Shown here piece after piece: positions 4,637 through 36,100 of a DNA stretch of 39,794 nucleotides. Where the stretch lies: UHGV virus genome UHGV-0220445. The stretch is one strand, 5' to 3'. Made by a program: the position numbers and the translations under genes. This stretch comes from a virus. The notes beneath the pieces were generated by a model. The model saw only the letters and a program-made list of their open reading frames with translations, did no database searches and was not told the DNA's origin. Numbering within the stretch: position 1 is the first letter of the stretch; the number at the start of each line of letters is the position of its first letter.

Positions 4637-4652
4637 GTAAGTACATACTTAC
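4637..4652. promoter_or_regulatory. Palindromic motif GTAAGTAcaTACTTAC (late-type element)
   Basis: Member of a motif family recurring before structural genes. Confidence 0.45.
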
Positions 4653-9003: not shown

Positions 9004-9525
9004 TTAAAACGGAAGGATTCGTTCAACCCAATCGAAGAAAACAAGTATTTTTCTGCCGTCTTCTAACTTAAGAGTGACCTGGCAAGCATCAACGCCTCTT
9101 GATACCCCTTCTATTTCACGACCGTCTGCCATGTAGACCCTTATAGATTGGTCGTTTTGATAAGCCTTGCGACATATCGCAAAAAAGTCACGACGTGATG
9201 GCTGATTAACCATCTGTTCATTGTTCAGTGTTAGTCGACCTGTGAATGAAGTGTCAACCTCTTCTATGCCTGACTCAATTGTGCTAATGCGCTCAAGAGG
9301 GAGCCTTACACGATTTGTGTTGCTAAACGGATCTGGTGTGAGGTTCAGCTTATTTCTTGCGCTCAACAGCCCGTAGACATACATGCAAAACACTTGGCCG
9401 TCTTCGAGAGTGACTCTTACAGGAAATTTTGCACTCCGCCAGAAGAGCAAGGTGCGCTCAGCATGTTCGTAGTCTCGCGGCCAGACTTCAGCCGGTATGC
9501 CGTAGGTGATGTCCAATGTTTTCAT
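9004..9525 (-). CDS. Hypothetical protein (173 aa)
   Basis: ORF track; start overlaps the stop of the upstream gene. Confidence 0.5.
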   Translation of the reverse strand: MKTLDITYGIPAEVWPRDYEHAERTLLFWRSAKFPVRVTLEDGQVFCMYVYGLLSARNKLNLTPDPFSNTNRVRLPLERISTIESGIEEVDTSFTGRLTLNNEQMVNQPSRRDFFAICRKAYQNDQSIRVYMADGREIEGVSRGVDACQVTLKLEDGRKILVFFDWVERILPF

Positions 9526-12200: not shown

Positions 12201-12218
12201 GTGGATTGTAGCAATAAA

Positions 12219-12899
12219 ATGGATGTAAAAATCACGATTTTGCAGGTTGATGTTGCCAACCTTCGCCCGAATACCTGGAACACCAATTCGGTTGGTGCGC
12301 AGAATTTTGAAAAACTGAAAGGTTCTATCGAAAAATTGGGCTTTTTTAAGCCAATTTTGGCTCGTGAACTTGAAGATGGATTTTTTGAAATCCTCGGCGG
12401 CGAACATCGCTGGCGTGCTGCTATTGAGCAAGGAATTTCAACGGTTCCGGTGCTTTCTGTGGGCAAAATTAGCGATGTCGTAGCTAAACAGATGTCACTG
12501 GTGGACAACGAGCGATACGGTGAAGACGACCAAATCGCATTGCAACGCTTCATTGAAGAAATTCAGTCAGAACTTGACTATCAACTGTCTGAAATCGCCC
12601 CGTATGACGACGAAATCTCGATGGTTTTAGCAAAAGAGGCGGCAATCGACCTTGAAGCACTGGAGGCGTTGTCTCGTGGTAGTGATGAGCCTGTCGATAC
12701 CGACAAACGAGAGAAAACCGAACGTGTGGGTGCGGAACATCAGACCATGCGCTTCAAAGTAACTTTCGATGCGTCAGATCGTGTTGCAGAAACCATAAAA
12801 AACATCATCAAAGAGCAGGCTATTAACACCGGTAATGAAATGGAGAACGCTGGTGAGGCTCTGGTGTGGCTGGTCGACTACTACAAGGAGCGTATGTAA
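12219..12899 (+). CDS. ParB/Srx-fold (ParB N-terminal domain-like) protein
   Basis: ParB box-like motif ILGGEHRWRAA; ORF track 12201..12899 (GTG); ATG 12219 chosen. Confidence 0.6.
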   Translation: MDVKITILQVDVANLRPNTWNTNSVGAQNFEKLKGSIEKLGFFKPILARELEDGFFEILGGEHRWRAAIEQGISTVPVLSVGKISDVVAKQMSLVDNERYGEDDQIALQRFIEEIQSELDYQLSEIAPYDDEISMVLAKEAAIDLEALEALSRGSDEPVDTDKREKTERVGAEHQTMRFKVTFDASDRVAETIKNIIKEQAINTGNEMENAGEALVWLVDYYKERM

Positions 12900-13567
12900 T
12901 GACCAAAAAGTTTGAAATCGTATATCGCGACCCGGCAGATCTTATTCCCTATGAGATGAATGCCAAAAAGCATGATGAACAGCAGATCCGAGATCTGGCC
13001 GCAGCCATTAAAAAGCGCGGATTTGACCAGCCAATTACGGTCGATAAGAACGACGTAATTATTACTGGCCACGGCCGCCGTGAGGCTGCAATTTTTGCTG
13101 GACTTGAGCGCGTGCCGGTTATTGTTCGCGATGATCTGAGTGATGACGAGGTACGTGCAAAGCGCCTTGAAGATAACCGACTTGCCAGCATTGATTACGA
13201 TGCAATTAAGCTACAGAAAGAGCTTGAGTCGCTTGTTCTGGACGATATCGAGGTTTTCGGCTTCGAAGAGCGTGAGTTGAATGTTCTCGTTGGCAGTATG
13301 ACAGAAGAAATGGACACCGACTCGCTAGTTATCGATCTTGGCGAAGAAACTAAACGACAGAAGGATGAACACACCGAGATCAGTCGTGAAGTTGCAGCGG
13401 AAGAAGTACGTGTTGTCGACGTATTGGGCTTTAAAACGCTCCCTGCTGGCTCTGCCATTGTTGTTGGTGATTTGCTTGCCCATATGGAAGAAATGACGGG
13501 AGAAAGCGGGGTAGACGCATTTGTGGCATATGCGGAGAAGATCTCTTCCGGGGAGATGGCTGCATGA
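12899..13567 (+). CDS. Second ParB/Srx-fold protein (paralog)
   Basis: Motif ITGHGRREAA; ATG overlaps upstream stop (ATGTAATG). Confidence 0.6.
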   Translation: MTKKFEIVYRDPADLIPYEMNAKKHDEQQIRDLAAAIKKRGFDQPITVDKNDVIITGHGRREAAIFAGLERVPVIVRDDLSDDEVRAKRLEDNRLASIDYDAIKLQKELESLVLDDIEVFGFEERELNVLVGSMTEEMDTDSLVIDLGEETKRQKDEHTEISREVAAEEVRVVDVLGFKTLPAGSAIVVGDLLAHMEEMTGESGVDAFVAYAEKISSGEMAA

Positions 13568-14229
13568 GCAAATACATCATCAACGTATCGTTTCAGACAC
13601 GCGTAAATAAAACCACGCGCACGTTGGAAATCGCTGAGTCGTTCGGGCTTGGCCTGGACGAAAAAGAGTGGACGCTTTACGACAATCTGGAGCTGGAAGT
13701 GAAGCAGGGCGATGTGGTGTACATCACCGGCCAATCCGGTTCCGGCAAATCCGTTGTGCTGCGCGAGTTGCAACGACAGATGAAGGATGAAGGGCTGTCT
13801 GTAGCCTCCATCGATGATTTTACCTTCGATAATGAGGTTAACGTCATCGATCAGTTGGGCAAAACGACCAGTGATGCGCTTGGGTTGTTATCTATGGCTG
13901 GTCTGAACGATGCATATCTGTTTGTTCGCAAGCCTTCTGAAATGTCAGACGGCCAGAAATATCGTCTCAAGATTGCCAAACTGATTGAGTCAGGCGCTAA
14001 AGTATGGGCTGCTGACGAGTTCGGCGCTGTTCTCGACCGTGTAACCGCTCAGGTTGTGGCGTCTAACCTCCAGCGTGCCGCTCGAAAGGTTGGTGCGACG
14101 GTAATGGTGGCGACGACTCACGAAGACCTGAAGAACGCGCTGCGCCCTGATATGCAGATCACCAAGCACTACAAAGAACGCGTGAAGGTGGAATATCACA
14201 ATGGTAGTCATGATGAGGTCCATTCATGA
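13564..14229 (+). CDS. ABC-type ATPase, nucleotide-binding domain only (221 aa)
   Basis: Walker A GQSGSGKS, signature-like MSDGQKYR, Walker B VWAADE, H-loop ATTHE; ATGA overlap upstream. Confidence 0.65.
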   Translation: MSKYIINVSFQTRVNKTTRTLEIAESFGLGLDEKEWTLYDNLELEVKQGDVVYITGQSGSGKSVVLRELQRQMKDEGLSVASIDDFTFDNEVNVIDQLGKTTSDALGLLSMAGLNDAYLFVRKPSEMSDGQKYRLKIAKLIESGAKVWAADEFGAVLDRVTAQVVASNLQRAARKVGATVMVATTHEDLKNALRPDMQITKHYKERVKVEYHNGSHDEVHS

Positions 14230-15116
14230 CGGACATCATCATTAAACGCTACCGCCCTGAAGAGTTTCCGCGTCATCTGGACTTTCTGGAGCGAATGACT
14301 GTTACAAAGGGAACTGTAGAGGACTGGCACGCTCTTAAGTCGCTTCACTACAAAACAGACGGCAAACCTTTCGCGCCAACTTACTATCGCTGCGAACTTG
14401 ATGACCGTCTGGTGGGCGTCGTGGTTATGGCTTACCCGAAACTACTGTTGGCACCTCGCCACCGCATGTTTCCTAAGTTGAAACCAACCACTAATACCAC
14501 CGTGGCTAACCAGTACTGGGGTCGGTACGTGAATAACAACTTTGCGGTGATCAGTCGCTCAGTTGTGGATACTCAGTATCGTGGCGTAGGCGTCTCTTAT
14601 CGAATGATTAACCTGGTTAGCAGGATGCATGACCGGCCAATCATTGAGATCCAGTCCTCGATGAGCAAATACAATCCCTTCGCCATGAAAGCAGGGTTTA
14701 AGTTCATCCGCCCTGAGCGACCGAAGAGCTATGAAAGTGCACTGCGTGTGTTCCAGCGCCATTTCCGCTCCGACCCGGGTGATAACGAGGCGATCGTTAA
14801 AGAGTTGTTCGCTATGAGCGAGTCTCGTCGTCGCCGTGCACTGCGTGATCTGGTGGCGGACTACCACAAGAACAGTTCCCTGGCAAAAGCAGGGCGGAAT
14901 CGTGGCACGACGATTCAGGACATTGCCGACAGTCTGGTGGACGAGGCCAGCATTGTGAAGCTGCTCAAGGACATTCACAACCTGAGCTTTACGTCTCCGT
15001 TGTATGGTGTGTACCGAAACCCTGACTTTGGCCGTCGACTGCCTGAAACGCTGCCACTGCTGGCATTCGACAAACAACCTTTGGATAAACCGTTAGAAAT
15101 TGCTTTACCGGCATAA
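14226..15116 (+). CDS. Hypothetical protein with possible GNAT-like acyltransferase core (296 aa)
   Basis: Pattern VGVVVMAY ... FAVISRSVVDTQYRGVGVSYRMINLV resembles the GNAT acyl-CoA binding motif; tentative. Confidence 0.35.
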   Translation: MTDIIIKRYRPEEFPRHLDFLERMTVTKGTVEDWHALKSLHYKTDGKPFAPTYYRCELDDRLVGVVVMAYPKLLLAPRHRMFPKLKPTTNTTVANQYWGRYVNNNFAVISRSVVDTQYRGVGVSYRMINLVSRMHDRPIIEIQSSMSKYNPFAMKAGFKFIRPERPKSYESALRVFQRHFRSDPGDNEAIVKELFAMSESRRRRALRDLVADYHKNSSLAKAGRNRGTTIQDIADSLVDEASIVKLLKDIHNLSFTSPLYGVYRNPDFGRRLPETLPLLAFDKQPLDKPLEIALPA

Positions 15117-15125
15117 GGATTTGCC

Positions 15126-15392
15126 ATGACGTTAACCGATAAACAAAAGGACATCATCAAAACGCTCAATCTCGGTTATGAGCGAGGTCATCTACTTGAC
15201 CTGGACGAATTGCTTGAAGTTTTGCCGTACAAGACAACCAAGCAAAGTATCCAGTTCTCAATTCGCGCTCTGATAAAAAAGGGGCTGGTGGAGAAAGGGC
15301 ATACGCGCCAACGCAGTGACAATCGCTATCACCGCCGGACTCTTGGGTTAACCACTTTAGGTCGAGCCAAAGCGAAGTTACTGGTGATGTAA
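15126..15392 (+). CDS. Small basic protein, possible winged-helix DNA binder (88 aa)
   Basis: ORF track; size and charge only. Confidence 0.35.
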   Translation: MTLTDKQKDIIKTLNLGYERGHLLDLDELLEVLPYKTTKQSIQFSIRALIKKGLVEKGHTRQRSDNRYHRRTLGLTTLGRAKAKLLVM

Positions 15393-15416
15393 TCGGTCTG
15401 GGAGCTTATTTAAAGA

Positions 15417-15471
15417 CCTGCTTCTGTATATATAAATAATAAGTAACTTATTAAATATATACGGAAGCAGG
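15417..15471. repeat. ~55-bp imperfect AT-rich palindrome with GC clamps (cctgcttc ... gaagcagg)
   Basis: Core aataagtaacttatt belongs to the late-type palindrome family; ~115 bp upstream of terminase small subunit. Confidence 0.7.
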
Positions 15472-15505
15472 CTTCGTAAGACATGCCAGACCTAATTAAA
15501 CACCC

Positions 15506-15569
15506 CAGAAAACAAGTTGGTTAGCAGATGCAGTAAACAAGTTGTTTTAGAGCGCATGGACGCGCTCTG
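15506..15569 (+). promoter_or_regulatory. Two copies of early-type motif (gaaaacaagttggtt, gtaaacaagttgtttta) followed by hairpin agagcgc-atggac-gcgctct
   Basis: Sequence pattern directly upstream of 15588 start. Confidence 0.4.
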
Positions 15570-15587
15570 TGTGTTTTAGAGGGATCT

Positions 15588-16220
15588 ATGACGGTCGAAA
15601 AAGACGAGGTAAAAACTCGCCTGACACCAGCGGAGTGGGCCGAAGCTGAAGCCAAATGGACGTCAGGCGAATATACACTCTCAAAGCTGGAGGAAGAGTA
15701 CGGCATTCGTCGTGAAACACTCTCCAGACATTTCAAAAAGCGAGGATTAGAGAAAGGCGCGGACTCTGTTGGGAAGATGGTTCGTGAGTCTCTTAAATCT
15801 GACGCAGAGCTTCGCGCTAAAGCCCGTGCGGAAAAGATAGAAGAACGTCGTACACGTTATGACGGCTGGGCGTATGCGTTGGGGCAGATGGTGATGGTCG
15901 AAGTCACTACGGCCAAACGTGAGGGTAAGCCTTTAGGGGCGATTGAGGATTCTCTCAAGAGCTTACAGAGAGCCAGTAATACCCTTGCAAAATGCTTTGA
16001 AGTTTCGTCCAAAGCATTGGGCATGGATCATGCGGAAAATGACGAGGAAGAAATTCCGAACCTGGTATTTGGTGAGCTTACGCCTTCCCAGGTGGCGAAA
16101 TTACGTCAGGAAGACGACGAGCCTGAAATCATCGATGACGAATTGCTTGAGACGTTAGAAGAAGAAGCTCTAAGCGAATTTGATGCGACAGATGATGGAA
16201 GTGAAGGGGAGGACGAATAA
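15588..16220 (+). CDS. Putative terminase small subunit
   Basis: Directly upstream of and overlapping the large terminase; HTH-like N-terminus, acidic C-terminal tail. Confidence 0.5.
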   Translation: MTVEKDEVKTRLTPAEWAEAEAKWTSGEYTLSKLEEEYGIRRETLSRHFKKRGLEKGADSVGKMVRESLKSDAELRAKARAEKIEERRTRYDGWAYALGQMVMVEVTTAKREGKPLGAIEDSLKSLQRASNTLAKCFEVSSKALGMDHAENDEEEIPNLVFGELTPSQVAKLRQEDDEPEIIDDELLETLEEEALSEFDATDDGSEGEDE

Positions 16221-17476
16221 TGGCAATCCCGTCCTCGCTCAGTCTTGTGCAACTGCATTCTGGACAGATGAAAGTCTTCCAGTCTCCGCATCGATTTAAA
16301 GTTGTTTGTGCTGGTCGACGCTGGGGAAAATCCCGGTTGTCGATCTCCACTATTATTCGTGCGGCGGCAAAGGAAAAAAAGCAAAGAGTCTGGTATGTCG
16401 CTCCTACTTACCAGATGGCTCGCCAGATTTTGTGGGACGATCTACAGGAAGTTCTGCCTCGTAAGTGGGTTAGGAAAAAGAACGACACCACGATGACAAT
16501 CGTGTTGAAGAACGGTTCGGAGATCGCCCTCAAAGGTGCTGATAAGCCTGACACTCTGCGCGGCGTAGCGTTGCATTTTGTAGTGCTTGATGAATTTCAG
16601 GATATGAAGGCTGACACCTGGTACAAGGTGTTACGACCTACTCTTTCATCGACACGCGGCGGTGCACTGATCATTGGTACGCCAAAAGGCTTCTCGGAAT
16701 TTCACAAACTGTGGACTATAGGCCAGAACGTAGAGCTGCAAAGAAAGGGACAGTGGAAGAGCTGGCAGTTTGTAACTGCCGATTCTCCGTTTGTACCTAC
16801 GGCGGAAATTGAAGCTGCTAAGAACGATATGGACCCGAAATCGTTCGCTCAGGAGTACCTGGCGAGCTTTGAGAACATGTCCGGGCGCGTTTACTACCCG
16901 TTCGATCGTAACGTGCATGTAAAACCGCTTCAGTTCAACCCTCGGTTGCCTATATGGGTAGGGCAGGACTTCAACATTGACCCGATGTCTTCAGTAATTT
17001 TGCAACCTCAGCCAAATGGTGAGCTATGGGCAATTGATGAATTGGTGCTCTTTTCCTCTAACACGGCAGAGGTTTGTGATGAGCTTGAGAGACGCTTCTG
17101 GCGCTGGAAATCACAGATAACGGTATTTCCAGATCCGGCAGGTGCTTATCGCCAACATGCTCGCGGGGAGTCTGACGTCGACATATTCAAAGAGAAGGGA
17201 TTCTTACGTGTCGATTATTCGAAAAAGCACCCGCCAATTGCGGATCGTGTTAATGCTGTTAACCGAATGCTGATGACCGCATCTGGAGATATCCGGCTGT
17301 ATATCGATCCGAAGTGCAAGCATTTGATTGATTCACTGGAAAAAGTCATCTACAAGCCTGGAACACGAGATATGGATAAGACAGGTGGCATTGAGCATAG
17401 TGCAGACGCATTGGGCTATCCAGTACATCGTAGGTATCCAGTCAAAAACCGTGTTATTCTTGGTGGTTCTCGATAG
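16220..17476 (+). CDS. Terminase large subunit
   Basis: Walker A VVCAGRRWGKS, Walker B FVVLDEFQD; followed by portal. Confidence 0.85.
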   Translation: MAIPSSLSLVQLHSGQMKVFQSPHRFKVVCAGRRWGKSRLSISTIIRAAAKEKKQRVWYVAPTYQMARQILWDDLQEVLPRKWVRKKNDTTMTIVLKNGSEIALKGADKPDTLRGVALHFVVLDEFQDMKADTWYKVLRPTLSSTRGGALIIGTPKGFSEFHKLWTIGQNVELQRKGQWKSWQFVTADSPFVPTAEIEAAKNDMDPKSFAQEYLASFENMSGRVYYPFDRNVHVKPLQFNPRLPIWVGQDFNIDPMSSVILQPQPNGELWAIDELVLFSSNTAEVCDELERRFWRWKSQITVFPDPAGAYRQHARGESDVDIFKEKGFLRVDYSKKHPPIADRVNAVNRMLMTASGDIRLYIDPKCKHLIDSLEKVIYKPGTRDMDKTGGIEHSADALGYPVHRRYPVKNRVILGGSR

Positions 17477-17492
17477 GTAAGTAATTATCTAA
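17475..17492. promoter_or_regulatory. Late-type motif taGGTAAGTAATTATCTA upstream of portal
   Basis: Near-identical to the motif at 20897-20914. Confidence 0.45.
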
Positions 17493-20011: not shown

Positions 20012-20887
20012 ATGCCATTACTGCGTGAAGAAGCTGAAAAGCTGTCTAACAACGAACTTGAACAGGGTGTGATCGAAACTATCATCGATCGCGATGACCT
20101 GTTTGCCATCCTGCCTTTTATGAAAATTAATTCAAAGGCATATCTGTACAACCGTGAAAAAACGCTGAGTGAAGCTACCTTCATCGACGTTAACGACACC
20201 ATCCCTGAAGGTGCAGCAACCTTCGAAGAATGCGTTGCGAAACTGCGTATTCTGGCTGGTGACGTAGACGTTGATAAATTCCTGGCGACCACTATGGCCG
20301 ACACCAACAACCAGTTGGCTATTCAGGTTCGTCAGAAAGTTAAAGGTCTGGCTCGTGCGTTCCGTCGCAACCTGATTTTGGGTGACTCCAGCTCCAACAC
20401 CAAAGCGTTCGACGGCATTCCACGCCTGATGCACGCAGATCAGAAGATCGATATCGCCGGTGCATCTATGACTTTCTCTATGTTCGACGAACTGGTCGAT
20501 GCGGTGAAAGATCTTGGTGCTGACTGCATCATGATGCGTTCAGAGCACCTGCGTGCTTACCGTGCGCTGCTGCGTACAGTAAACGTAGGTCCGTCTGAAA
20601 TCATGATGGAGAACTTCGGTCGTCCGATGCTGTGTCATAACGGCGTTCCGTTCATCATCAACGACTTCATCCCGACCGATTCTGGCAAAGCAAGCATCTA
20701 CTGCCTGCATCTGTCAGAAGAGAACGGCGTTACTGGTCTGTATGGCGGCGACAACGCAGGTATCGTTGTTGAAAACATTGGTACTGTACAGAACAAAGAC
20801 GCAGTACGTACCCGTGTGAAGTGGTACTGCTCTCTGGCGAATAAGCACGATAAGGCTATCGCTGCACTGACCAATGTAAAAATTTAA
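20012..20887 (+). CDS. Major capsid protein (291 aa)
   Basis: Position after scaffold; followed by late motif and strong terminator. Confidence 0.75.
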   Translation: MPLLREEAEKLSNNELEQGVIETIIDRDDLFAILPFMKINSKAYLYNREKTLSEATFIDVNDTIPEGAATFEECVAKLRILAGDVDVDKFLATTMADTNNQLAIQVRQKVKGLARAFRRNLILGDSSSNTKAFDGIPRLMHADQKIDIAGASMTFSMFDELVDAVKDLGADCIMMRSEHLRAYRALLRTVNVGPSEIMMENFGRPMLCHNGVPFIINDFIPTDSGKASIYCLHLSEENGVTGLYGGDNAGIVVENIGTVQNKDAVRTRVKWYCSLANKHDKAIAALTNVKI

Positions 20888-20919: not shown

Positions 20920-20947
20920 AAGGGTGGGCTATACGCCCACCCTTTTT
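20920..20947 (+). terminator. Intrinsic terminator after capsid gene (gggtgggc-tatac-gcccaccc + TTTTT)
   Basis: 8-bp GC stem plus T5. Confidence 0.7.
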
Positions 20948-20960
20948 GTAGGAGCGAGAA

Positions 20961-22360: not shown

Positions 22361-23193
22361 TGGCGCAGATCGACTCGTATCGTAGCGGTGAAGCTGTTTC
22401 CCTTTCATTTGCCTTCAACGTGCTGGATATCGAATCTGCTACCTACACAGTAAAGGACAGCACCGGGGCTATTCTCGTTGATGGAGAGCCGCTAGAAATT
22501 ACCAGCGGTCAAATGTCGATTCCGGTTGTCGTGTCGGCTGAATATAACCAGCTCTCTGAGAAAGAGCGAGATCTGCGGTACGTCATTGTGAAGGCTGTTG
22601 CATCGGGTCTGACGCATGAAGAGCGGCAAATGTATGTTCTGCTGAATAGTTTTGAACTGTCGATACCAGAACAGTCGTTTGCAACTGTCGCTGATGCTCA
22701 AATGCAGGCGATCGATATGCTGAATGGGGACACTTTGCTGTCGGATGGTGAAGGCTTAATGCGCAAGCGTCTCATTGAGGCTACCAGACGAATTAAAACT
22801 TTACCGTTCTCAATCCGCAAAATTCTACGTATCGACTTTGACCGATACGATCGCCCTCAAAATATGCTGAATGTGTATGACATTCCGTGGGGAGCAGATG
22901 GAGCGTACCGGCATGATTTAGTCGATTGGGAAAAGATGACGCAGGAGAAGTTTGAAGAGTTCCCTGACTACTTCAAAGAAGCGTTGATGCTTGCCGTTGT
23001 CAACGAAGCGTGTGAGATCGCAAATGGCAATGATGTTGCCGCAGCACGAGAGGATGGCATTTTGTCAGAGTCAATCGGTGAAACAACCAACATGTACCGT
23101 ACCGGTAAAGCTGCAAACGTGCATGTGGCTCGCAGTACCTGGCGCTTGCTGGTCAGTTACATCAACAACCGTATGATTGTTCGCCGTGCGTAA
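22360..23193 (+). CDS. Hypothetical structural module protein (277 aa)
   Basis: ORF track; start overlaps upstream stop. Confidence 0.45.
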   Translation: MAQIDSYRSGEAVSLSFAFNVLDIESATYTVKDSTGAILVDGEPLEITSGQMSIPVVVSAEYNQLSEKERDLRYVIVKAVASGLTHEERQMYVLLNSFELSIPEQSFATVADAQMQAIDMLNGDTLLSDGEGLMRKRLIEATRRIKTLPFSIRKILRIDFDRYDRPQNMLNVYDIPWGADGAYRHDLVDWEKMTQEKFEEFPDYFKEALMLAVVNEACEIANGNDVAAAREDGILSESIGETTNMYRTGKAANVHVARSTWRLLVSYINNRMIVRRA

Positions 23194-23272
23194 CGCCAGT
23201 CGCATTATTTACTTTTGGTCTAAAGGGTTTTTGGCCAGTAATGAGAGCGACCGACAACAACAGGGAGAGAGC

Positions 23273-23617
23273 ATGAATATTTCATGGCAAACAGAAATTG
23301 CGATCTACCGCTTTGGCGCAAAGAACGTTTACGGTGAGGCGCAATTACAATTCGTCAGGAAGACGAATGTCGGCGTGGTTAAGTTCGAACAGAGTAATGA
23401 GAAATCGTCAGTTCGTGCTGATAGCTCTGGTAGTCGTGGTAAGGCGAGTCTGGAGCTGTTTGATGCTGTGTTAGTTGTCCCTTTAGAAGCGGCTGTACAA
23501 CTTGATGATGTGCTGATCCTTGAAGGTCAAAAATTAAAGGTGTCCAGTGTTCATCGCCGCTGGGGGCTACGAGGAAGACCTGGGCATCTTGAAGTAGGGG
23601 CGAATATATGGGTCTGA
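23273..23617 (+). CDS. Hypothetical head-tail joining module protein (~114 aa)
   Basis: ORF track (23177..23617); ATG 23273 follows SD gggagag. Confidence 0.4.
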   Translation: MNISWQTEIAIYRFGAKNVYGEAQLQFVRKTNVGVVKFEQSNEKSSVRADSSGSRGKASLELFDAVLVVPLEAAVQLDDVLILEGQKLKVSSVHRRWGLRGRPGHLEVGANIWV

Positions 23618-24081
23618 AATACGATGCGCATCAGTTCAAACGTGCGGGGAATCGACTCAACAACAGCCAGAAAGCATTTAAGCGATATCTTATCCGGGAC
23701 ATGGAAAAGCTGGCGCGTTTGGTTGAGCGTCTCAGCCGTGCAATGGCCCCGCTGGAAACCGGATCTCTGGAGACAGCCATCTTTGCCAGGGTGATTAAAG
23801 AAGGTTATTCAGGGCTGCGTATTGAGCTTTCTGTGTCTGGAGCAAAACCACGTCAGGGGCATCCGGGCGTAGAAGTAGGTGACTATGCTAAGTACATGGA
23901 GCTGGGTAAATACCGACTCGGTTATCTTTCTCGAATGAAGAACGTGACAAACCCACCAATTGCCGGTGTTAAACCCCGTGTTGGGCCACACTTTCTGGAA
24001 AGAGCGGTGGAAATTAGCGAGAAGCAGTTCTCAGAAGCGATTCTTGAGGCTGCCAGAAAAGCCGGATTTACGAGAGGTTAA
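23608..24081 (+). CDS. Hypothetical neck/tail module protein (157 aa)
   Basis: ORF track; start overlaps upstream gene. Confidence 0.45.
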   Translation: MGLKYDAHQFKRAGNRLNNSQKAFKRYLIRDMEKLARLVERLSRAMAPLETGSLETAIFARVIKEGYSGLRIELSVSGAKPRQGHPGVEVGDYAKYMELGKYRLGYLSRMKNVTNPPIAGVKPRVGPHFLERAVEISEKQFSEAILEAARKAGFTRG

Positions 24082-24082
24082 T

Positions 24083-24466
24083 GTGTTTATTGAAGCGTTT
24101 GCAAGTTTGATGCAGAAGGCAAAGATTGGCACGGTCGGGACTGACATTTTCTGTCACTACTTGCCTGCCAATGTGAAATCTGGCGTCCTGCTTATTAACC
24201 CAAATACCGGCATCAGCATCGATCATGAGCTACAGGGCTTTTATCACGAATCATTCACAATCATTGTGCGTGGTTCGTCAATTACTACGACGGTTGAGAA
24301 AGCCAATAAAATCATTGAGATGTTTCCAGTAGAGGAAACGGAATCTGGTGGTGTTTATTTTCGACTGGTACGACCGATGGCGATGCCAATCATTTATCCC
24401 AAAAATGATGGAGCATTAATAGAAGCAGGCATTCCAGTTGAATTTGCTGGCTATTTATTGAATTAA
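24083..24466 (+). CDS. Hypothetical tail completion-type protein (~127 aa)
   Basis: ORF track (23960..24466); GTG 24083 follows SD gagagg. Confidence 0.4.
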   Translation: MFIEAFASLMQKAKIGTVGTDIFCHYLPANVKSGVLLINPNTGISIDHELQGFYHESFTIIVRGSSITTTVEKANKIIEMFPVEETESGGVYFRLVRPMAMPIIYPKNDGALIEAGIPVEFAGYLLN

Positions 24467-24474
24467 GTTAATCG

Positions 24475-24490
24475 GTAAGTATATACTTAC
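24475..24490. promoter_or_regulatory. Perfect 16-bp palindrome GTAAGTATATACTTAC upstream of major tail gene
   Basis: Self-complementary; late-type family. Confidence 0.5.
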
Positions 24491-24540
24491 TGTTAGCGCA
24501 ATGAATGCGTAGAATTAACGGAAAAAGGAGTTTTCCATCA

Positions 24541-25287
24541 ATGTCTAATACCCATGTAAAAAACATCAAACTTGGTGCCTGTAAGGTGTCGTTTGGTGGT
24601 GTGGATTTGGGTTACACCAAAGGTGGTGTTCAGGTTGAAGTAGCCACTGAAACGCTGAAAGTCACCGTCGATCAGTTGGGGCAGACCGTAATTTCCGAAT
24701 TAGTTCAGGGGCGCAACATTACCATCACCGCGCCTCTGGCTGAGTCTGTACTCCAAAACATGGTTGACCTGATGCCTGGTTCTACTCTGAGCGAAGATGA
24801 CAACTCTGTCACGATCACATCTGCACAGGGCGTTAACCTGATTGATGTGGCGAAGGAGCTGGTTCTGACTCCGCAGGACACCACCGACTATGTGTTGACC
24901 ATCCCGAAAGCGGCAACCGCGGGCAACTTCACTATGACCTACCAGTCTGATGATGTTCGTGTGTTCTCTGTTCAGTTCAGCGCATACCCGGATGATGAAG
25001 GCGTTCTGGGCAAAATGAGCGGTCCTAAACCGGTAAAAACTGTGTCGATCTCACCGGAATCTCCAACCGTAAAAGCTGGAGAAACTGTGCAACTGACAGC
25101 CGAAATCACTCCAGCTGATGCCGCAGACAAAACCGGTGTTTGGGAATCCGAAGACCAGGAAAAGGCCACGGTAGATCAAACGGGTCTGGTACGTGGTGTG
25201 GCGCAGGGTTCTACAAATATCTCCTTCACCAGCAATAGCGGTGGTAAGAAGGCAACTAAGTCAGTAACGATTAACCCCGCAGATTAA
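24541..25287 (+). CDS. Major tail protein with C-terminal Ig-like domain
   Basis: Position before G/T chaperone and tape measure; C-terminus has the same BIG2-like pattern as 20961..21881. Confidence 0.7.
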   Translation: MSNTHVKNIKLGACKVSFGGVDLGYTKGGVQVEVATETLKVTVDQLGQTVISELVQGRNITITAPLAESVLQNMVDLMPGSTLSEDDNSVTITSAQGVNLIDVAKELVLTPQDTTDYVLTIPKAATAGNFTMTYQSDDVRVFSVQFSAYPDDEGVLGKMSGPKPVKTVSISPESPTVKAGETVQLTAEITPADAADKTGVWESEDQEKATVDQTGLVRGVAQGSTNISFTSNSGGKKATKSVTINPAD

Positions 25288-25300
25288 TCAGTAATTAAGC

Positions 25301-25327
25301 AGAGGCTCAGGATGGGCCTCTCTTTTA
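25301..25327 (+). terminator. Terminator-like hairpin after major tail gene (agaggc ... gcctct + CTTTT)
   Basis: Stem-loop plus T-run. Confidence 0.5.
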
Positions 25328-25342
25328 AAAGGATTTTAACCA

Positions 25343-25660
25343 ATGACCAAATTACTCGATCTCGATTCCATTCTGCCTCCGAAGAAAAGCATCAAATTTG
25401 GCGGTCAGGAATATCCCATCGTTGAAATGACGGTAGGTCTGTTCGTTTCCATCAAGCAGATGGAAGGCAAAGATCTCATGAACATGTCTCCTGTTGAGCA
25501 AGTGACAGCTTATGCAGATCTGGTTCGTAAGGTTATCCCTTCAGTACCTGACGAAGTTCTTGAAAAACTGACTGTTCCGCAACTCCAGCAGATCTTCACC
25601 TTCGCTATGGAAGTGATTGATGAAGAAAACGAAAAAGCGGCTGGCGAAGGGGCAAAGTAA
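25343..25660 (+). CDS. Tail assembly chaperone (gpG-like)
   Basis: Size (105 aa), acidic C-terminus, directly upstream of tape measure. Confidence 0.6.
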   Translation: MTKLLDLDSILPPKKSIKFGGQEYPIVEMTVGLFVSIKQMEGKDLMNMSPVEQVTAYADLVRKVIPSVPDEVLEKLTVPQLQQIFTFAMEVIDEENEKAAGEGAK

Positions 25661-32538: not shown

Positions 32539-33119
32539 TTCATGTGCAGCTTGGCGGCCCTATGGCCAAACATTTTGGCCGCCACTGGCATCTAAAGGTG
32601 CGCAATACAAAACAGGCTCTGGATTTAATTGAGGCCAACAAGCCTGGGTTTAAAGCATGGATGAAGCGCAATATCAAAACCTATGACCGTTACCACATCC
32701 AGATCACCAATAAACAGGGCCACAAGTGGTCTGTTGACGAAAGTGAATATCAGATGATGGGGCAGTCTGACAACATTGCCAAAATCCGCATTACACCTGT
32801 TCCGCGAGGAAGCGGTGGATCTGCTTTTGGGTGGTTTCAGACGGTAGTAGGGGCCGCTTTGTTGGTTGTATCGGCGGTAGTGATGCCTGCTTTAGCACCT
32901 CTCGGTTTGTCACTGATGATGGGCGGCATATCACAAATCATATCGCCACAAGCCACTAACGAAAGTGTGAGACAGGCAGATAACTCGAACTCTTATTATT
33001 TCGACGGCCCTCAAAATACAGAAAACCAGGGCAACCCAGTACAACTTATCTATGGCGAGGAAATTCTGGTTGGCTCACAGGTTGTGAGTTCTTCAATCAC
33101 GATTGACCAGCTAATGTAA
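32526..33119 (+). CDS. Tail assembly protein (lambda gpI-like)
   Basis: Size and position between K-like and J-like genes; hydrophobic Gly/Ala-rich segment. Confidence 0.65.
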   Translation: MSELVHVQLGGPMAKHFGRHWHLKVRNTKQALDLIEANKPGFKAWMKRNIKTYDRYHIQITNKQGHKWSVDESEYQMMGQSDNIAKIRITPVPRGSGGSAFGWFQTVVGAALLVVSAVVMPALAPLGLSLMMGGISQIISPQATNESVRQADNSNSYYFDGPQNTENQGNPVQLIYGEEILVGSQVVSSSITIDQLM

Positions 33120-33136: not shown

Positions 33137-36100
33137 ATGGAACAGTTCAAGAAGAAAAAGCTACCGCTGTTTATTGCCGGTGCGGGTGGTAAAAAAAGCA
33201 GCAAAAGCTCCAGCCGTACACCGGTTGAAGCCGACGATACCGTAAATTCTCGTGCAATGGCCGCTATCCTCGATCTTCTTGGGGAAGGGGTAATTGGCGG
33301 CTTAGTAAATGGCGCAAGATCTATTTTTATCGACGATCTGCCGATTGTAAATGAAGACGGTTCCTCCAACTTCAGCGGAATCACATGGGATTTTCGCGAC
33401 GGTTCACAAGACCAGACTCCAATGTCTGGCTTTGATTTCGTTGAAACGCCTAAATCCGTCAATATCCAGTTAAAAAAAACACATTATGTAACGGTTTCAA
33501 TCGATAACGATGAAGCTGATCGGGTTCGTGTCATCATGAAGTTTCCTTCTTTGCGAAGCATAGATAAAAAAACTGGTGACACGAACGGTACGACTGTTGA
33601 GTACAAGTTCCAGATAGCAAATGGCGACTCAACATTTGTAGATGTGGTCGCTGAAGGTGAAAAAAGCGTTGGCATTAAGCTAACAGCAAAGAAGACAGGT
33701 GTTTATTACCGTAGCTATGAGCTGAAGCTGCCTAAGCCTGGACGAGCATACAAGGTTCGTGTGGTCCGTATTACCGATGATAACAGCAGCCAGTATCTCT
33801 ATAACGATACATGGGTGGACTCAATAGGTGAGATTGTAGATACACCGATGAACTACCCAAACTCTGTGCTGGTGGGTCTGAAGGTTAATTCTGAGCAGTT
33901 TGGTAGCACCATGCCATCTCGTTCGTATTTGGTACGTGGATTAAAAATTCGCGTGCCGTCAAACTACAACGAGGCCAGCAACACTTATGATGGTGTATGG
34001 GATGGCACTTTTAAGCTGTTGTCTTCTTCAAACCCCGCGTGGATTCTCTTTGATTTGCTGACCAATGCTCGATATGGCCTTGGTCAGTATGTGTCGGAAT
34101 CTATGATTGACCTTGGCCAGTTGTACCAGATTGGTCGATATTGTGACGAAGAGGTCGATGATGGTTTTGGTGGCAAAGAGAAACGCTTTGCAATCAATAC
34201 GCAGATCACCAGTCGACAGGACGCATACCGGCTAATTCAGGATATTGCCGGAGCATTCCGCGGCATGGTGTTTTGGGCTGGTGGGATGGTTAACATCATG
34301 CAGGATAGCCCATCAGATCCGGTAATGATGTTTACCAACTCTAACGTCAAAGATGGATTGTTTACCTATAAAGGTTCTGCGCGTAAAGATCGCCCATCCG
34401 TTGCGCTCGTAACCTACAACAACAAGGAGGACGGTTATAAGCAAAACATCGAGTACGTCGAAGATCAGGACGCAATGCGCCGTTATGGTGAGCGTAAAAC
34501 AGAAGTCGTAGCATTTGGCTGTACAAGCCGAGGGCAGGCTCACCGAGTTGGTTTGTGGCTTTTATATACCGCCAGAATGGAGTCGGATGTAATTACATTT
34601 ACTGCCGGCTTAGACGCGTCATTTCTGATGCCTGGTGAAACCGTTCTGATTCAGAACAAATATCGCGCAGGCAAACGTAACTCAGGTCGAATTGTGGCGT
34701 TTACCAAAAACAGCGTCACACTCGATGCGCCTGTGTCGTTAGCCAAAGGCGGCTGCTTTATTCGAATACTGAATCAGGAAGGCAAAATCGTTGAACGCGA
34801 TGTTCTTGAAACTGGCGAAAATATAACAAAAGTTACGTTTTCAAAAGCCCTGTCTTCGGCTGAAACGCCTGTTTTGAACGGCGTCTGGACTATTACAGAA
34901 CCAGACCTCGAACCTATGCGCGTTCGCATCGTTAACATCGCGCAGGGGGAAACGCCGGGTAGCTTTGACATCACCGCTGTTGAGAACAATCCGTCTAAAT
35001 ATGAGGCAATCGACAATGGTGCAACGCTGATTCCGCAGAATACGACGGTATTGGACCCAACTTACTCCAAGCCATCTAATTTGCAAATCACTGAAGGGAC
35101 TTATCTCTCAAGCCCGGGCAACCTGTCAGTAAAACTGACTGCAACATGGGAAGGGAAATCTCCAGAGTATTGGATCAGTTGGCGACGTTCTGATGAAAAC
35201 AATGTATCGAACTGGCAATCGGCGCGTGTAACCGAAGAGCAATACGAAATCGTTAATGTCGCGGAGAATGGACGCTACGACTTCCAGCTGTATGCGGTTT
35301 CATTCAACGGTAAAAAAACAGAGATTATCAGTGCCGTTTATCAGGTGTTGGGCACAATGACACCGCCGGATTCCCCAACGTCATTAACGGCCGTTGGAGA
35401 CTATCGTAATGTGATACTGAATTGGGTTAATCCAGATTCGGTAGACCTTGATCACATTAATGTTTACGCATCCCAGACCAACAATCTGGATACGGCGAAA
35501 CTGATCGCAGAGTCTGCAAGCACCACCTTTACACATGCTGGTCTTGGGGATAGCGAAACGTGGTATTACTGGGTTCGAGCATCGAACAAGCGAGGTATGT
35601 TAAGTCCTCCGAACTCAAACTTGGGTACAGAGGCGACAACTCGCGATGTACTGTCGTTCCTGACTGGCAAAATTACATCTTCCGAGCTTGGTCAGGCTCT
35701 GCTTGAGGACATCAACAGCAAAGCCTCTCAAGAAGCAGTTGACGAGTTAAATGAGCATATCAACCAGAGCGTCGAATCTTTGGAGGGGGCGGTAAACGAC
35801 GTTAAGGAAGATATAGCTGAATTAGATAAGCAGTTCAGCGATAACCTCGCGGATTTTGAAATAAAATTCAACGAGCGTAGCGATGCTTTGGAGAACGCAC
35901 AAACCGAGCTTAAAGGTGAGGTTTCGGCAACGATCGACAAGGTCAATGAAGCGTTTGAAAAAATTGATGCTACTGATGCTGCAATTGTTGAAATCGAAAA
36001 CACCGTATCTGAACACGATAAAGCTCTCGCTAATACAGTCGAGGCAATAAAGGCTGCAAGAGATGAAGCGGCGGCTCTTATTGCTAAGGAAAGCGAGGCT

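Follow-up and report, generated by a model that had tools for sequence, protein, structure and literature searches.

What separates the packaging and morphogenesis genes of a phage-plasmid from the genes in front of them, and what governs the first gene of the late block? The question is raised by the intergenic spacer that precedes the gene for a terminase small subunit-like protein (here terS) in the virus genome UHGV-0220445, of which a stretch of 39,794 nucleotides (nt), referred to as the window, was analysed. The window is that of an SSU5-family phage-plasmid, a family that includes pHCM2-like Salmonella and pMT1-like Yersinia pestis plasmids. An original prediction, made from the letters alone, had described the spacer as a complex regulatory region in front of the small terminase gene and proposed it as a promoter and as a site of DNA packaging. 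The general description is borne out: terS (its ATG correctly placed at 15588), the large terminase subunit (TerL) gene and the portal gene follow downstream, and all three of the region's elements, a palindrome, a pair of early-type dyads and a GC-rich hairpin, are conserved across the family. The promoter is not, since a scan of the spacer with the sigma-70 consensus found none. On the best reading, the spacer is a boundary and control region, made up of three separable modules, that lies between an upstream block of ParB-like, ABC-type and winged-helix (orf88) genes and the late packaging-morphogenesis block.

A palindrome at three gene boundaries

The most prominent module is the ~55-bp GC-clamped palindrome that had been recognised by eye and was recovered here, its clamps cctgcttc (15417-15424) and gaagcagg (15464-15471) enclosing an AT-rich core. 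According to a repeat finder, its 17-nt arms are 94% complementary and a set of inner arms (15429-15444 / 15446-15461) 88%. Beyond what had been described before, the same search returned an additional outer pair, 15383-15401 / 15486-15504. Because the outer arms GGTCTGG (15395-15401) and CCAGACC (15486-15492) share the centre of the palindrome, the symmetric unit grows to ~98 bp and begins 3 nt past the stop codon of orf88.

Within the window the palindrome is single-copy. The closest complete relative, the E. coli plasmid pCTX (NZ_CP047004.1, 112 kb), of which the window represents the reverse strand, carries the same palindrome (53-55 bp) three times: at ~65.1 kb (the terS copy), at 32,698-32,750, upstream of a phrog_2500 gene and the DnaB-like helicase operon, and at 95,567-95,623, between a dam-type methyltransferase gene and a 76-aa (amino acid) gene. 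The same plasmid holds ISEcp1-blaCTX-M-55 (23170-25560) and, near its helicase-site palindrome, IS1 (33470-34167). Phage SSU5 also has three copies, at 0, 33.5 and 78.4 kb. A pattern scan of IMG/VR yielded more than 80 copies (81), and all of those with complete flanks fall into exactly three contexts, represented by 21 (terS), 27 (helicase) and 15 (dam) distinct sequences. The terS copy was present, intact or modified, in 43 of 43 distinct upstream regions examined. In all three contexts, the palindrome lies ~25-35 nt past the upstream stop codon where the upstream gene is co-directional and ~105-117 nt before the next start codon. Some helicase-site copies match the window's terS copy at 55 of 55 positions, which suggests exchange or co-selection among the copies and, presumably, a common function. 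Two other plasmids, one of 66 kb from Shigella and one of 204 kb of the IncY type, gave short matches; these represent the helicase copy, which travels there with the helicase module. A mobile palindromic element, be it a miniature inverted-repeat transposable element (MITE), a repetitive extragenic palindrome (REP) or a Correia-like repeat, was considered and rejected on account of the exactly three orthologous contexts among the 81 copies, with no flanking duplication seen.

Divergent lineages alter the element in several ways. In L196-L201, the clamps are retained around a different core. In L197-L199, an opposite-strand 297-aa gene sits exactly between the palindrome and the terS leader, so that the palindrome is found 13 nt past orf88 and 1.1 kb from terS; the inserted gene (L197:1285-2178, minus strand; also in L198 and L199) is moron-like. 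In L193 and L203, the right arm has given way to a small terminator of canonical form (AGAGC-ACG-GCTCT plus seven consecutive T). In the sister lineage L206-L212, whose TerS proteins are 55-59% identical, the position after orf88 holds a longer AT-rich region with clamps that differ in sequence yet are mutually complementary (CCTWGCTCCCATA...TATGGGAGCWAGG) and that recur in at least two further copies (two genomes examined). The right arm typical of the lineage is found at three loci of one sister-lineage genome: a full palindrome followed by CUUUCUUUUU, a right arm on its own and the terS copy. A scan of IMG/VR for the sister arm ATAAATAYTATGGGAGC (L222-L293) gave 84 matches, mostly in contigs other than those of the SSU5-like relatives compared here; those in L272 and L276 are unrelated, the former being a ribosome-binding-site and start-codon context, and only matches in SSU5-like contigs are relevant.

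Taken together, the position of the palindrome, the complementarity of its clamps across lineages, the U tracts, the replacement by a plain terminator and the insertion point of the moron-like gene suggest a terminating or insulating boundary hairpin. We rank an operon-boundary hairpin, probably recognised by a protein, first among the explanations considered, while holding it tentatively. Once transcribed, the palindrome would fold into a long hairpin and so stop read-through from the upstream block or insulate against it, in both directions where genes converge. A lower stem of 17 bp, an asymmetric internal loop and an upper stem of 7 bp are predicted for its RNA (-27.7 kcal/mol), and the tails of the helicase and dam copies are T-rich, with a mean of 5.5 T per 9 nt compared to 3.1 at the terS copies. 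The sequence is conserved to excess and its gene-proximal arm is the better kept one, both of which suggest that the palindrome is read by a protein as well; a family-encoded factor would then probably recognise it sequence-specifically. The obvious candidate reader is orf88, which is always found beside the terS copy and is predicted to adopt a MarR-like winged-helix fold (AlphaFold2 pLDDT, the predicted local distance difference test score, 82.2; Foldseek matches to 2pg4, MepR and MarR at E ~1e-4).

Several observations weigh against the boundary hairpin. The window's terS copy is followed by a poor U tract, CUUCGUAAG, and on its own would be a weak intrinsic terminator. Among 34 distinct copies, the arms (CCTGCTTCYGTATATA) are nearly invariant, and their changes (arm positions 1-14) are one-sided, giving 28 G-U pairs and 12 mismatches, with changes on both sides in two cells only; arm conservation thus exceeds what a hairpin requires, and pairs are sometimes broken. 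Nor is the strand preference consistent: the sense RNA is more stable than the antisense RNA in 6 of 10 terS, 13 of 15 helicase and 1 of 9 dam copies. Where the palindrome has decayed, as in the sister lineage's terS copy with its degenerate left arm or the L262 copy with its gene-proximal arm only, what is left is easier to reconcile with a DNA site or promoter than with a hairpin. RNA-seq of LF82 lysogens found the upstream genes and terS both at background and thus no evidence of insulation in the prophage state. Finally, the empty sigma-70 scan of the spacer also counts here, and the regions downstream of the other two palindrome copies were equally devoid of consensus promoters; given this result, the -10 candidates read by hand (TAATTA; TATCAT; TAGAAT/TAAAAT) are weak.

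The core of the palindrome further holds the late-type word ATAAGTAA (15439-15446) and TATAAATA (15431-15438). Its late-type character, as noted in the original prediction, agrees with the counts: ATAAGTAA occurs six times in the window against 0.92 expected and GTAAGTA 11 times against 2.66, an enrichment of 4-6-fold, mostly in late intergenic spacers. It is also correct, by motif positions, that the window has no other place where early- and late-type motifs lie at most 100 nt apart. Small GTAAGTA...TACTTAC palindromes and ATAAGTAA words are found again in intergenic spacers at 4637-4652 and 24475-24490 as well as at 17477, 19077, 20900, 30976 and 37899. They lie mostly between late genes, 10-40 nt before the next ribosome-binding site, and TAAGTAAGTAA supplies stop codons in all three frames. 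A T4-type late promoter, TATAAATA, was considered in the left arm and discarded, as the motif is unenriched (three occurrences vs 0.87 expected; 8 of 100 shuffles reach three), and its sense-strand bias over the palindrome copies (26 vs 6) is not independent evidence. The CCCAGACC boxes are not enriched in the window, and a scan for integration host factor sites gave a single one-mismatch match without the key conserved C.

Dyads and a covarying stem-loop in the terS leader

Between the palindrome and terS, the repeat finder located the two predicted early-type motifs at 15506-15522 and 15531-15547, their core being a 13-bp dyad, AAACAANTTGTTT. Allowing up to two mismatches, the dyad occurs at 14 sites in the window compared to 3.9 expected, a number reached by none of 100 shuffles; other good sites are at 1063, 1114, 2554, 3750, 4234, 5137 and 5887. 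In the form AAACAAGTTGTTT, at least eight early genes have it in their leaders, which follow a fixed layout of GATAAT-type -10 box, ACACCA, CAAGA, dyad, ribosome-binding site and ATG. The first copy in the spacer matches this layout from ACACC onwards, with a poor CCTAAT/TAATTA in the -10 position, and the -10-like hexamer of the spacer showed no conservation in the alignment of terS copies. The second copy is conserved in all aligned terS copies and lineages, whereas a deletion in the Klebsiella lineage has removed the first along with 26 nt. By their sequence, the two dyads appear to place the terS leader in the early-gene regulon. Because the dyad of early genes sits between the -10 box and the ribosome-binding site, the regulator of these genes would also hold the late block, via the two leader dyads.

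A gene at 9004-9525 (minus strand) encodes a 173-aa FljA-like protein (Pfam Flag1_repress, PF03614, E 3e-69; PHROG 'transcriptional repressor'). FljA itself acts on mRNA, namely on the 5' leader of the fliC mRNA. Since the dyads lie in transcribed leaders beside the ribosome-binding site, the FljA-like protein is a reasonable candidate for reading them; it is a possible reader of the AAACAAGTTGTTT dyads and the only candidate for this role. By analogy, the dyad could act at the RNA level.

The third module is the GC hairpin, which was found where it had been predicted and spans 15548-15569, with eight pairs (five of them G-C) and a 6-nt loop, followed by TGTGTGTTTT. Across 14 lineage representatives, 92.9% of cells of the six-pair stem are paired and four of the six pairs have changed on both sides (11 cells), a covariation score reached by none of 500 shuffles; the one-sided changes within the close family are G-U on the plus strand. 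Covariation together with these plus-strand G-U changes argues for an RNA structure on the terS transcript. In L193, L196-L201 and L203, the U tract behind it is lost while stem and loop are kept, the tail reading UGGUAGUA in L193, UGGUGGUUU in L196 and AUUAAGUU in L197. As the stem-loop survives the loss of the U tract, termination is not its conserved role, even though the U-rich tail may make it an attenuator in the lineage of the window. The direct repeat that brackets the hairpin, along with the dyad beside the ribosome-binding site of early genes, makes the hairpin look as if inserted into an early-type leader.

What the stem-loop displays is always A(N)GGA: AUGGAC here and AAGGAU, AAGGAA, AUGGAU or AGGAA in relatives. 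The consensus of CsrA ligands obtained by systematic evolution of ligands by exponential enrichment (SELEX) is RUACARGGAUGU, with the GGA in a hairpin loop (PMC4347634), and the SSU5-type loop CAAGGAUG equals the core of this consensus. We infer CsrA control of terS translation as a specific candidate mechanism, in which the A(N)GGA loop and the GGA of the Shine-Dalgarno sequence, laid out as for a CsrA/RsmA dimer, would allow translation to be blocked. Against it, the ACA 5' of the GGA is absent, as all lineages have GCA and hence CA only, and the window's own loop AUGGAC is a partial, weaker match. The loop motif is also plainly Shine-Dalgarno-like. The region as a whole folds much better than shuffled sequence (z = -8.25), and an Rfam scan of it returned only sub-threshold look-alikes of microRNA hairpins. 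The coordinates of all features are collected in Table 1.

Table 1. Features of the spacer and its flanking genes in the window
Feature	Position	Strand	Description
Spacer	15393-15587		195 bp; 88-aa winged-helix gene (orf88) on the left, terS-like gene on the right
Outer left arm GGTCTGG	15395-15401		minus strand reads CCCAGACC (15395-15402); conserved among the aligned terS copies
Palindrome	15417-15471		55 bp, AT-rich, GC-clamped; arms 15417-15433 / 15455-15471, centre 15444
Outer right arm CCAGACC	15486-15492		followed by weak -10-like TAATTA, 15493-15498
Early-type leader copy 1, ACACCCCAGAAAACAAGTTGGTT	15500-15522	+	dyad 15510-15522, one mismatch
Early-type dyad copy 2, AAACAAGTTGTTT	15535-15547		perfect match, operator-like
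10-nt direct repeat TGTTTTAGAG	15543-15552 and 15572-15581	+	exact copies bracket the stem-loop
RNA stem-loop	15548-15569	+	stem 15550-15555 / 15562-15567 plus two closing pairs
Loop AUGGAC	15556-15561	+	GGA at 15558-15560
U-rich tail TGTGTTTT	15570-15577	+	terminator-like in this lineage only
Shine-Dalgarno sequence AGAGGGA	15578-15584	+	second GGA at 15582-15584, 24 nt after the loop GGA; family-invariant
orf88	15126-15392	+	88 aa, phrog_900; closes the upstream ParB-like/ABC-ATPase block; candidate palindrome binder
terS-like gene	15588-16220	+	210 aa, phrog_867; N-terminal helix-turn-helix-like segment, acidic tail
TerL gene	16220-17476	+	Terminase_6N (E 3e-9), Terminase_6C; PHROG terminase families

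Other explanations for the palindrome

The near-invariance of the arms across genera and three paralogues would also suit a symmetric DNA operator or activator site for a dimeric, family-specific protein, orf88 being the most obvious candidate, that would switch the three lytic blocks, namely packaging/structure, helicase/replication and the one following dam, on or off together, the hairpin being incidental. Paralogues in one genome share lineage-specific arms, the gene-proximal half is the better conserved one and persists where the distal arm is degenerate or missing, the next start codon downstream is about equally far away at the three sites, and the predicted MarR-like fold of orf88 is a DNA-binding one in a gene that always adjoins the terS copy. 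We rank this explanation second and regard it as possible rather than probable, because no promoter emerged from the sigma-70 consensus scans, and the possible -10 boxes read by hand lie ~70 nt beyond the helicase and dam palindromes, which would put the centre near -110 and thus far away for a simple activator or repressor. Moreover, the palindrome and terS lie 1.1 kb apart in L197-L199, an ordinary terminator partly replaces the palindrome in L193/L203, and neither of the other two sites has a paralogue of orf88. A different role at the RNA level would be that of RNase III processing sites of the T7 intercistronic type, which would divide long lytic transcripts into pieces, each stable and translatable by itself, instead of ending transcription. 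The predicted 17-bp lower stem, internal loop and 7-bp upper stem are in line with such a function, a stem of this length being sufficient for cleavage; all copies lie between cistrons of a genome transcribed almost wholly one way, and processing would explain the absent U tract at the terS copy. However, the enzyme needs little primary-sequence conservation, the sense strand shows no preferential retention of pairing, arm changes are uncompensated and some copies have a degenerate or missing arm, all of which makes RNase III processing improbable. Lower still we place the notion that the three palindromes are lytic replication origins, or unwinding or primosome-loading sites for the phage's own DnaB-like helicase, primase and Pol III alpha. 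AT-rich cores, GC clamps and flanking CCAGAC-type boxes are reminiscent of origins, one copy is directly upstream of the helicase operon and the copies are roughly evenly spaced on the 100-112 kb genome, but their positions follow operon boundaries exactly and an ordinary terminator takes this place in one lineage. As no initiator was found, the helicase-adjacent phrog_2500 gene being without known function, and as CCCAGACC is unenriched in the window, an origin seems very unlikely.

This leaves the packaging role put forward in the original prediction, which we rank third. The terS copy would then be a cos or pac site, cut inside by terminase under the guidance of flanking sites, with the other two copies as non-functional look-alikes. 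The palindrome adjoins terS/terL, its terS-proximal half is the most conserved part, repeated boxes lie between palindrome and terS as in lambda cosB, and the arms differ among lineages alongside TerS proteins of only 55-59% identity. The one piece of positive, if indirect, evidence on DNA ends is that the SSU5 record JQ965645 ends with ...ACTTATTA and begins with AATATATACGGAAGCAGG..., inside the right arm. Its start is equivalent to window position 15454, which lies 10 nt past the centre of the palindrome on the right and leaves 133 nt to terS, and the junction is colinear with the plasmids, no base being lost or duplicated. Yet, the palindrome is not single-copy, as a cos site would be, but occurs three times per genome, SSU5 included; the helicase and dam sites have no link to packaging, some helicase copies are 55/55 identical to the terS copy, and the dyads between palindrome and terS are common to early genes and hence not terminase-specific. 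The Cyrano record, which starts one base later than that of SSU5, probably follows the latter and is not independent: the Cyrano paper re-annotated pLF82 and compared it with SSU5, reported no termini and had virion reads not above plasmid background. The virion- or plasmid-derived records of PhiR41_1, p4727 and pJN2-26 start elsewhere. When terS is displaced by 1.1 kb (L197-L199), the palindrome stays with orf88. Many database homologues of orf88 (P0035-P0119) are 'partial', cut at the ends of draft contigs; short-read assemblies may tend to break near the palindrome, which could explain the SSU5 start. TerL gives no guidance, since those relatives whose packaging type is known share only ~25% identity with it and differ in type among themselves; beyond the family, the closest phages are 25-41% identical in TerL, with packaging types that are mixed or unknown, and the best match among them, Vibrio 1.240.O, is a partial genome broken inside terS. 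A literature search whose scope did not extend to the SSU5 genome announcement, the 2014 AEM paper and Gilcrease & Casjens found no paper on SSU5 or Cyrano termini, and the use of IMG/VR contig ends as a proxy for DNA ends was abandoned owing to locus or chunk boundaries and assembly breaks. Three interchangeable copies and a palindrome that tracks orf88 rather than terS make a unique cos or pac function unlikely, although the flanking sequences could still give the terS copy specificity. The SSU5 GenBank origin should not be taken as a mapped cos site.

Family setting and likeness to known systems

Over ~4 kb around the spacer, the window is 97-99% identical to the Escherichia phage-plasmids CMS-2020a, PhiR41_1 and Cyrano (pLF82) and ~80% identical to Salmonella phage SSU5 and Klebsiella SSU5-like phages. 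The spacer itself is widespread: 801 PLSDB plasmids match a 401-nt query centred on it, 755 of them over at least 80% of the query, in Klebsiella, Escherichia, Enterobacter, Yersinia pestis, Salmonella and Citrobacter. The terS-like gene product has no match in Pfam or, by sequence, in the PDB, where searches with orf88 gave nothing useful either; its counterpart in Cyrano is annotated 'Terminase small subunit'. The portal gene lies 3' of the TerL gene. On the other side of the spacer, the block 5' of orf88 (12201-15116, plus strand) encodes two proteins with ParB N-terminal domains, an ABC-type ATPase and a 296-aa protein without a Pfam match, and its genes are among those at background expression in the LF82 lysogens. 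Further downstream, a canonical stem-loop with a T run, AAAGGGTGGGC...GCCCACCCTTTTT (~20925-20955), directly follows an open reading frame (20012-20887) that corresponds to the one annotated as major capsid protein in Cyrano and in SSU5.

Escherichia, Klebsiella, Salmonella, Enterobacter and Yersinia commonly harbour SSU5-type phage-plasmids, some of which carry resistance genes, such as blaCTX-M-55 in pCTX. There is essentially no account of how they silence ~60 kb of lytic genes in the plasmid state before turning to virion production, and our literature search found nothing on the palindrome, dyad or stem-loop elements or on SSU5-type regulation. The spacer offers three mutable handles on this problem: the boundary palindrome with its three copies, the dyad shared by early genes and terS, and the CsrA-type stem-loop, which, if it is one, could link packaging to host physiology. 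A more speculative and rather doubtful proposal is a three-site system in which orf88 binds the palindrome heading each lytic block and so provides a single plasmid/virion switch or insulator, with the terS copy perhaps doubling as the packaging start.

As a boundary hairpin, the palindrome invites comparison with the intrinsic or bidirectional terminators at the boundaries of phage operons and morons. With these it shares a GC-rich hairpin base right after a stop codon, the U-rich tails of the helicase and dam copies, a foreign opposite-strand gene just beyond and, in one lineage, a canonical terminator; unlike them, it has an AT-rich stem of ~25 bp, a sequence conserved across genera and three paralogues, and a poor U tract at the terS copy. 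The spacer also recalls lambda in two respects. Its short leader ending in a hairpin and U tract right before terS, the first late gene, resembles the pR'-tR'/Q late control region, and its partly symmetric element and repeated boxes before terS, ~130 nt from a deposited genome end, resemble cos (cosN-cosB upstream of Nu1). In contrast to lambda, no Q-like gene or qut site was identified, the symmetric element is present three times and TerL is of the Terminase_6N rather than the GpA type. T7 RNase III sites and the Correia or ERIC (enterobacterial repetitive intergenic consensus) repeats are likewise repeated, sequence-similar, long intercistronic hairpins, but here three copies only occupy fixed orthologous positions in every member examined, with no target-site duplication or empty sites seen.

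The two leader modules have relatives of their own. Like the C1 operators of phage P1 and operators of the +10 type (lacO1), the dyad is short, repeated at many early units just past the -10 box and also present before a late function; it differs in its unrelated sequence, in its location in a transcribed leader beside the Shine-Dalgarno sequence and in the FljA-like protein as nearby candidate repressor. Like CsrA/RsmA sites, the covarying stem-loop shows an A(N)GGA in its loop of 5-6 nt, which a C-G pair closes, and a second GGA follows 24 nt on, within the Shine-Dalgarno sequence; it departs from such sites in the reduction of ACA to CA and in the window's loop AUGGAC. As a precedent, CsrA has been reported to control ColE7 cel, a lysis gene that an extrachromosomal element carries (PMC2896534). 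Each module thus resembles a known kind, and the unusual part is the three-copy, sequence-conserved palindrome with a winged-helix gene next to it.

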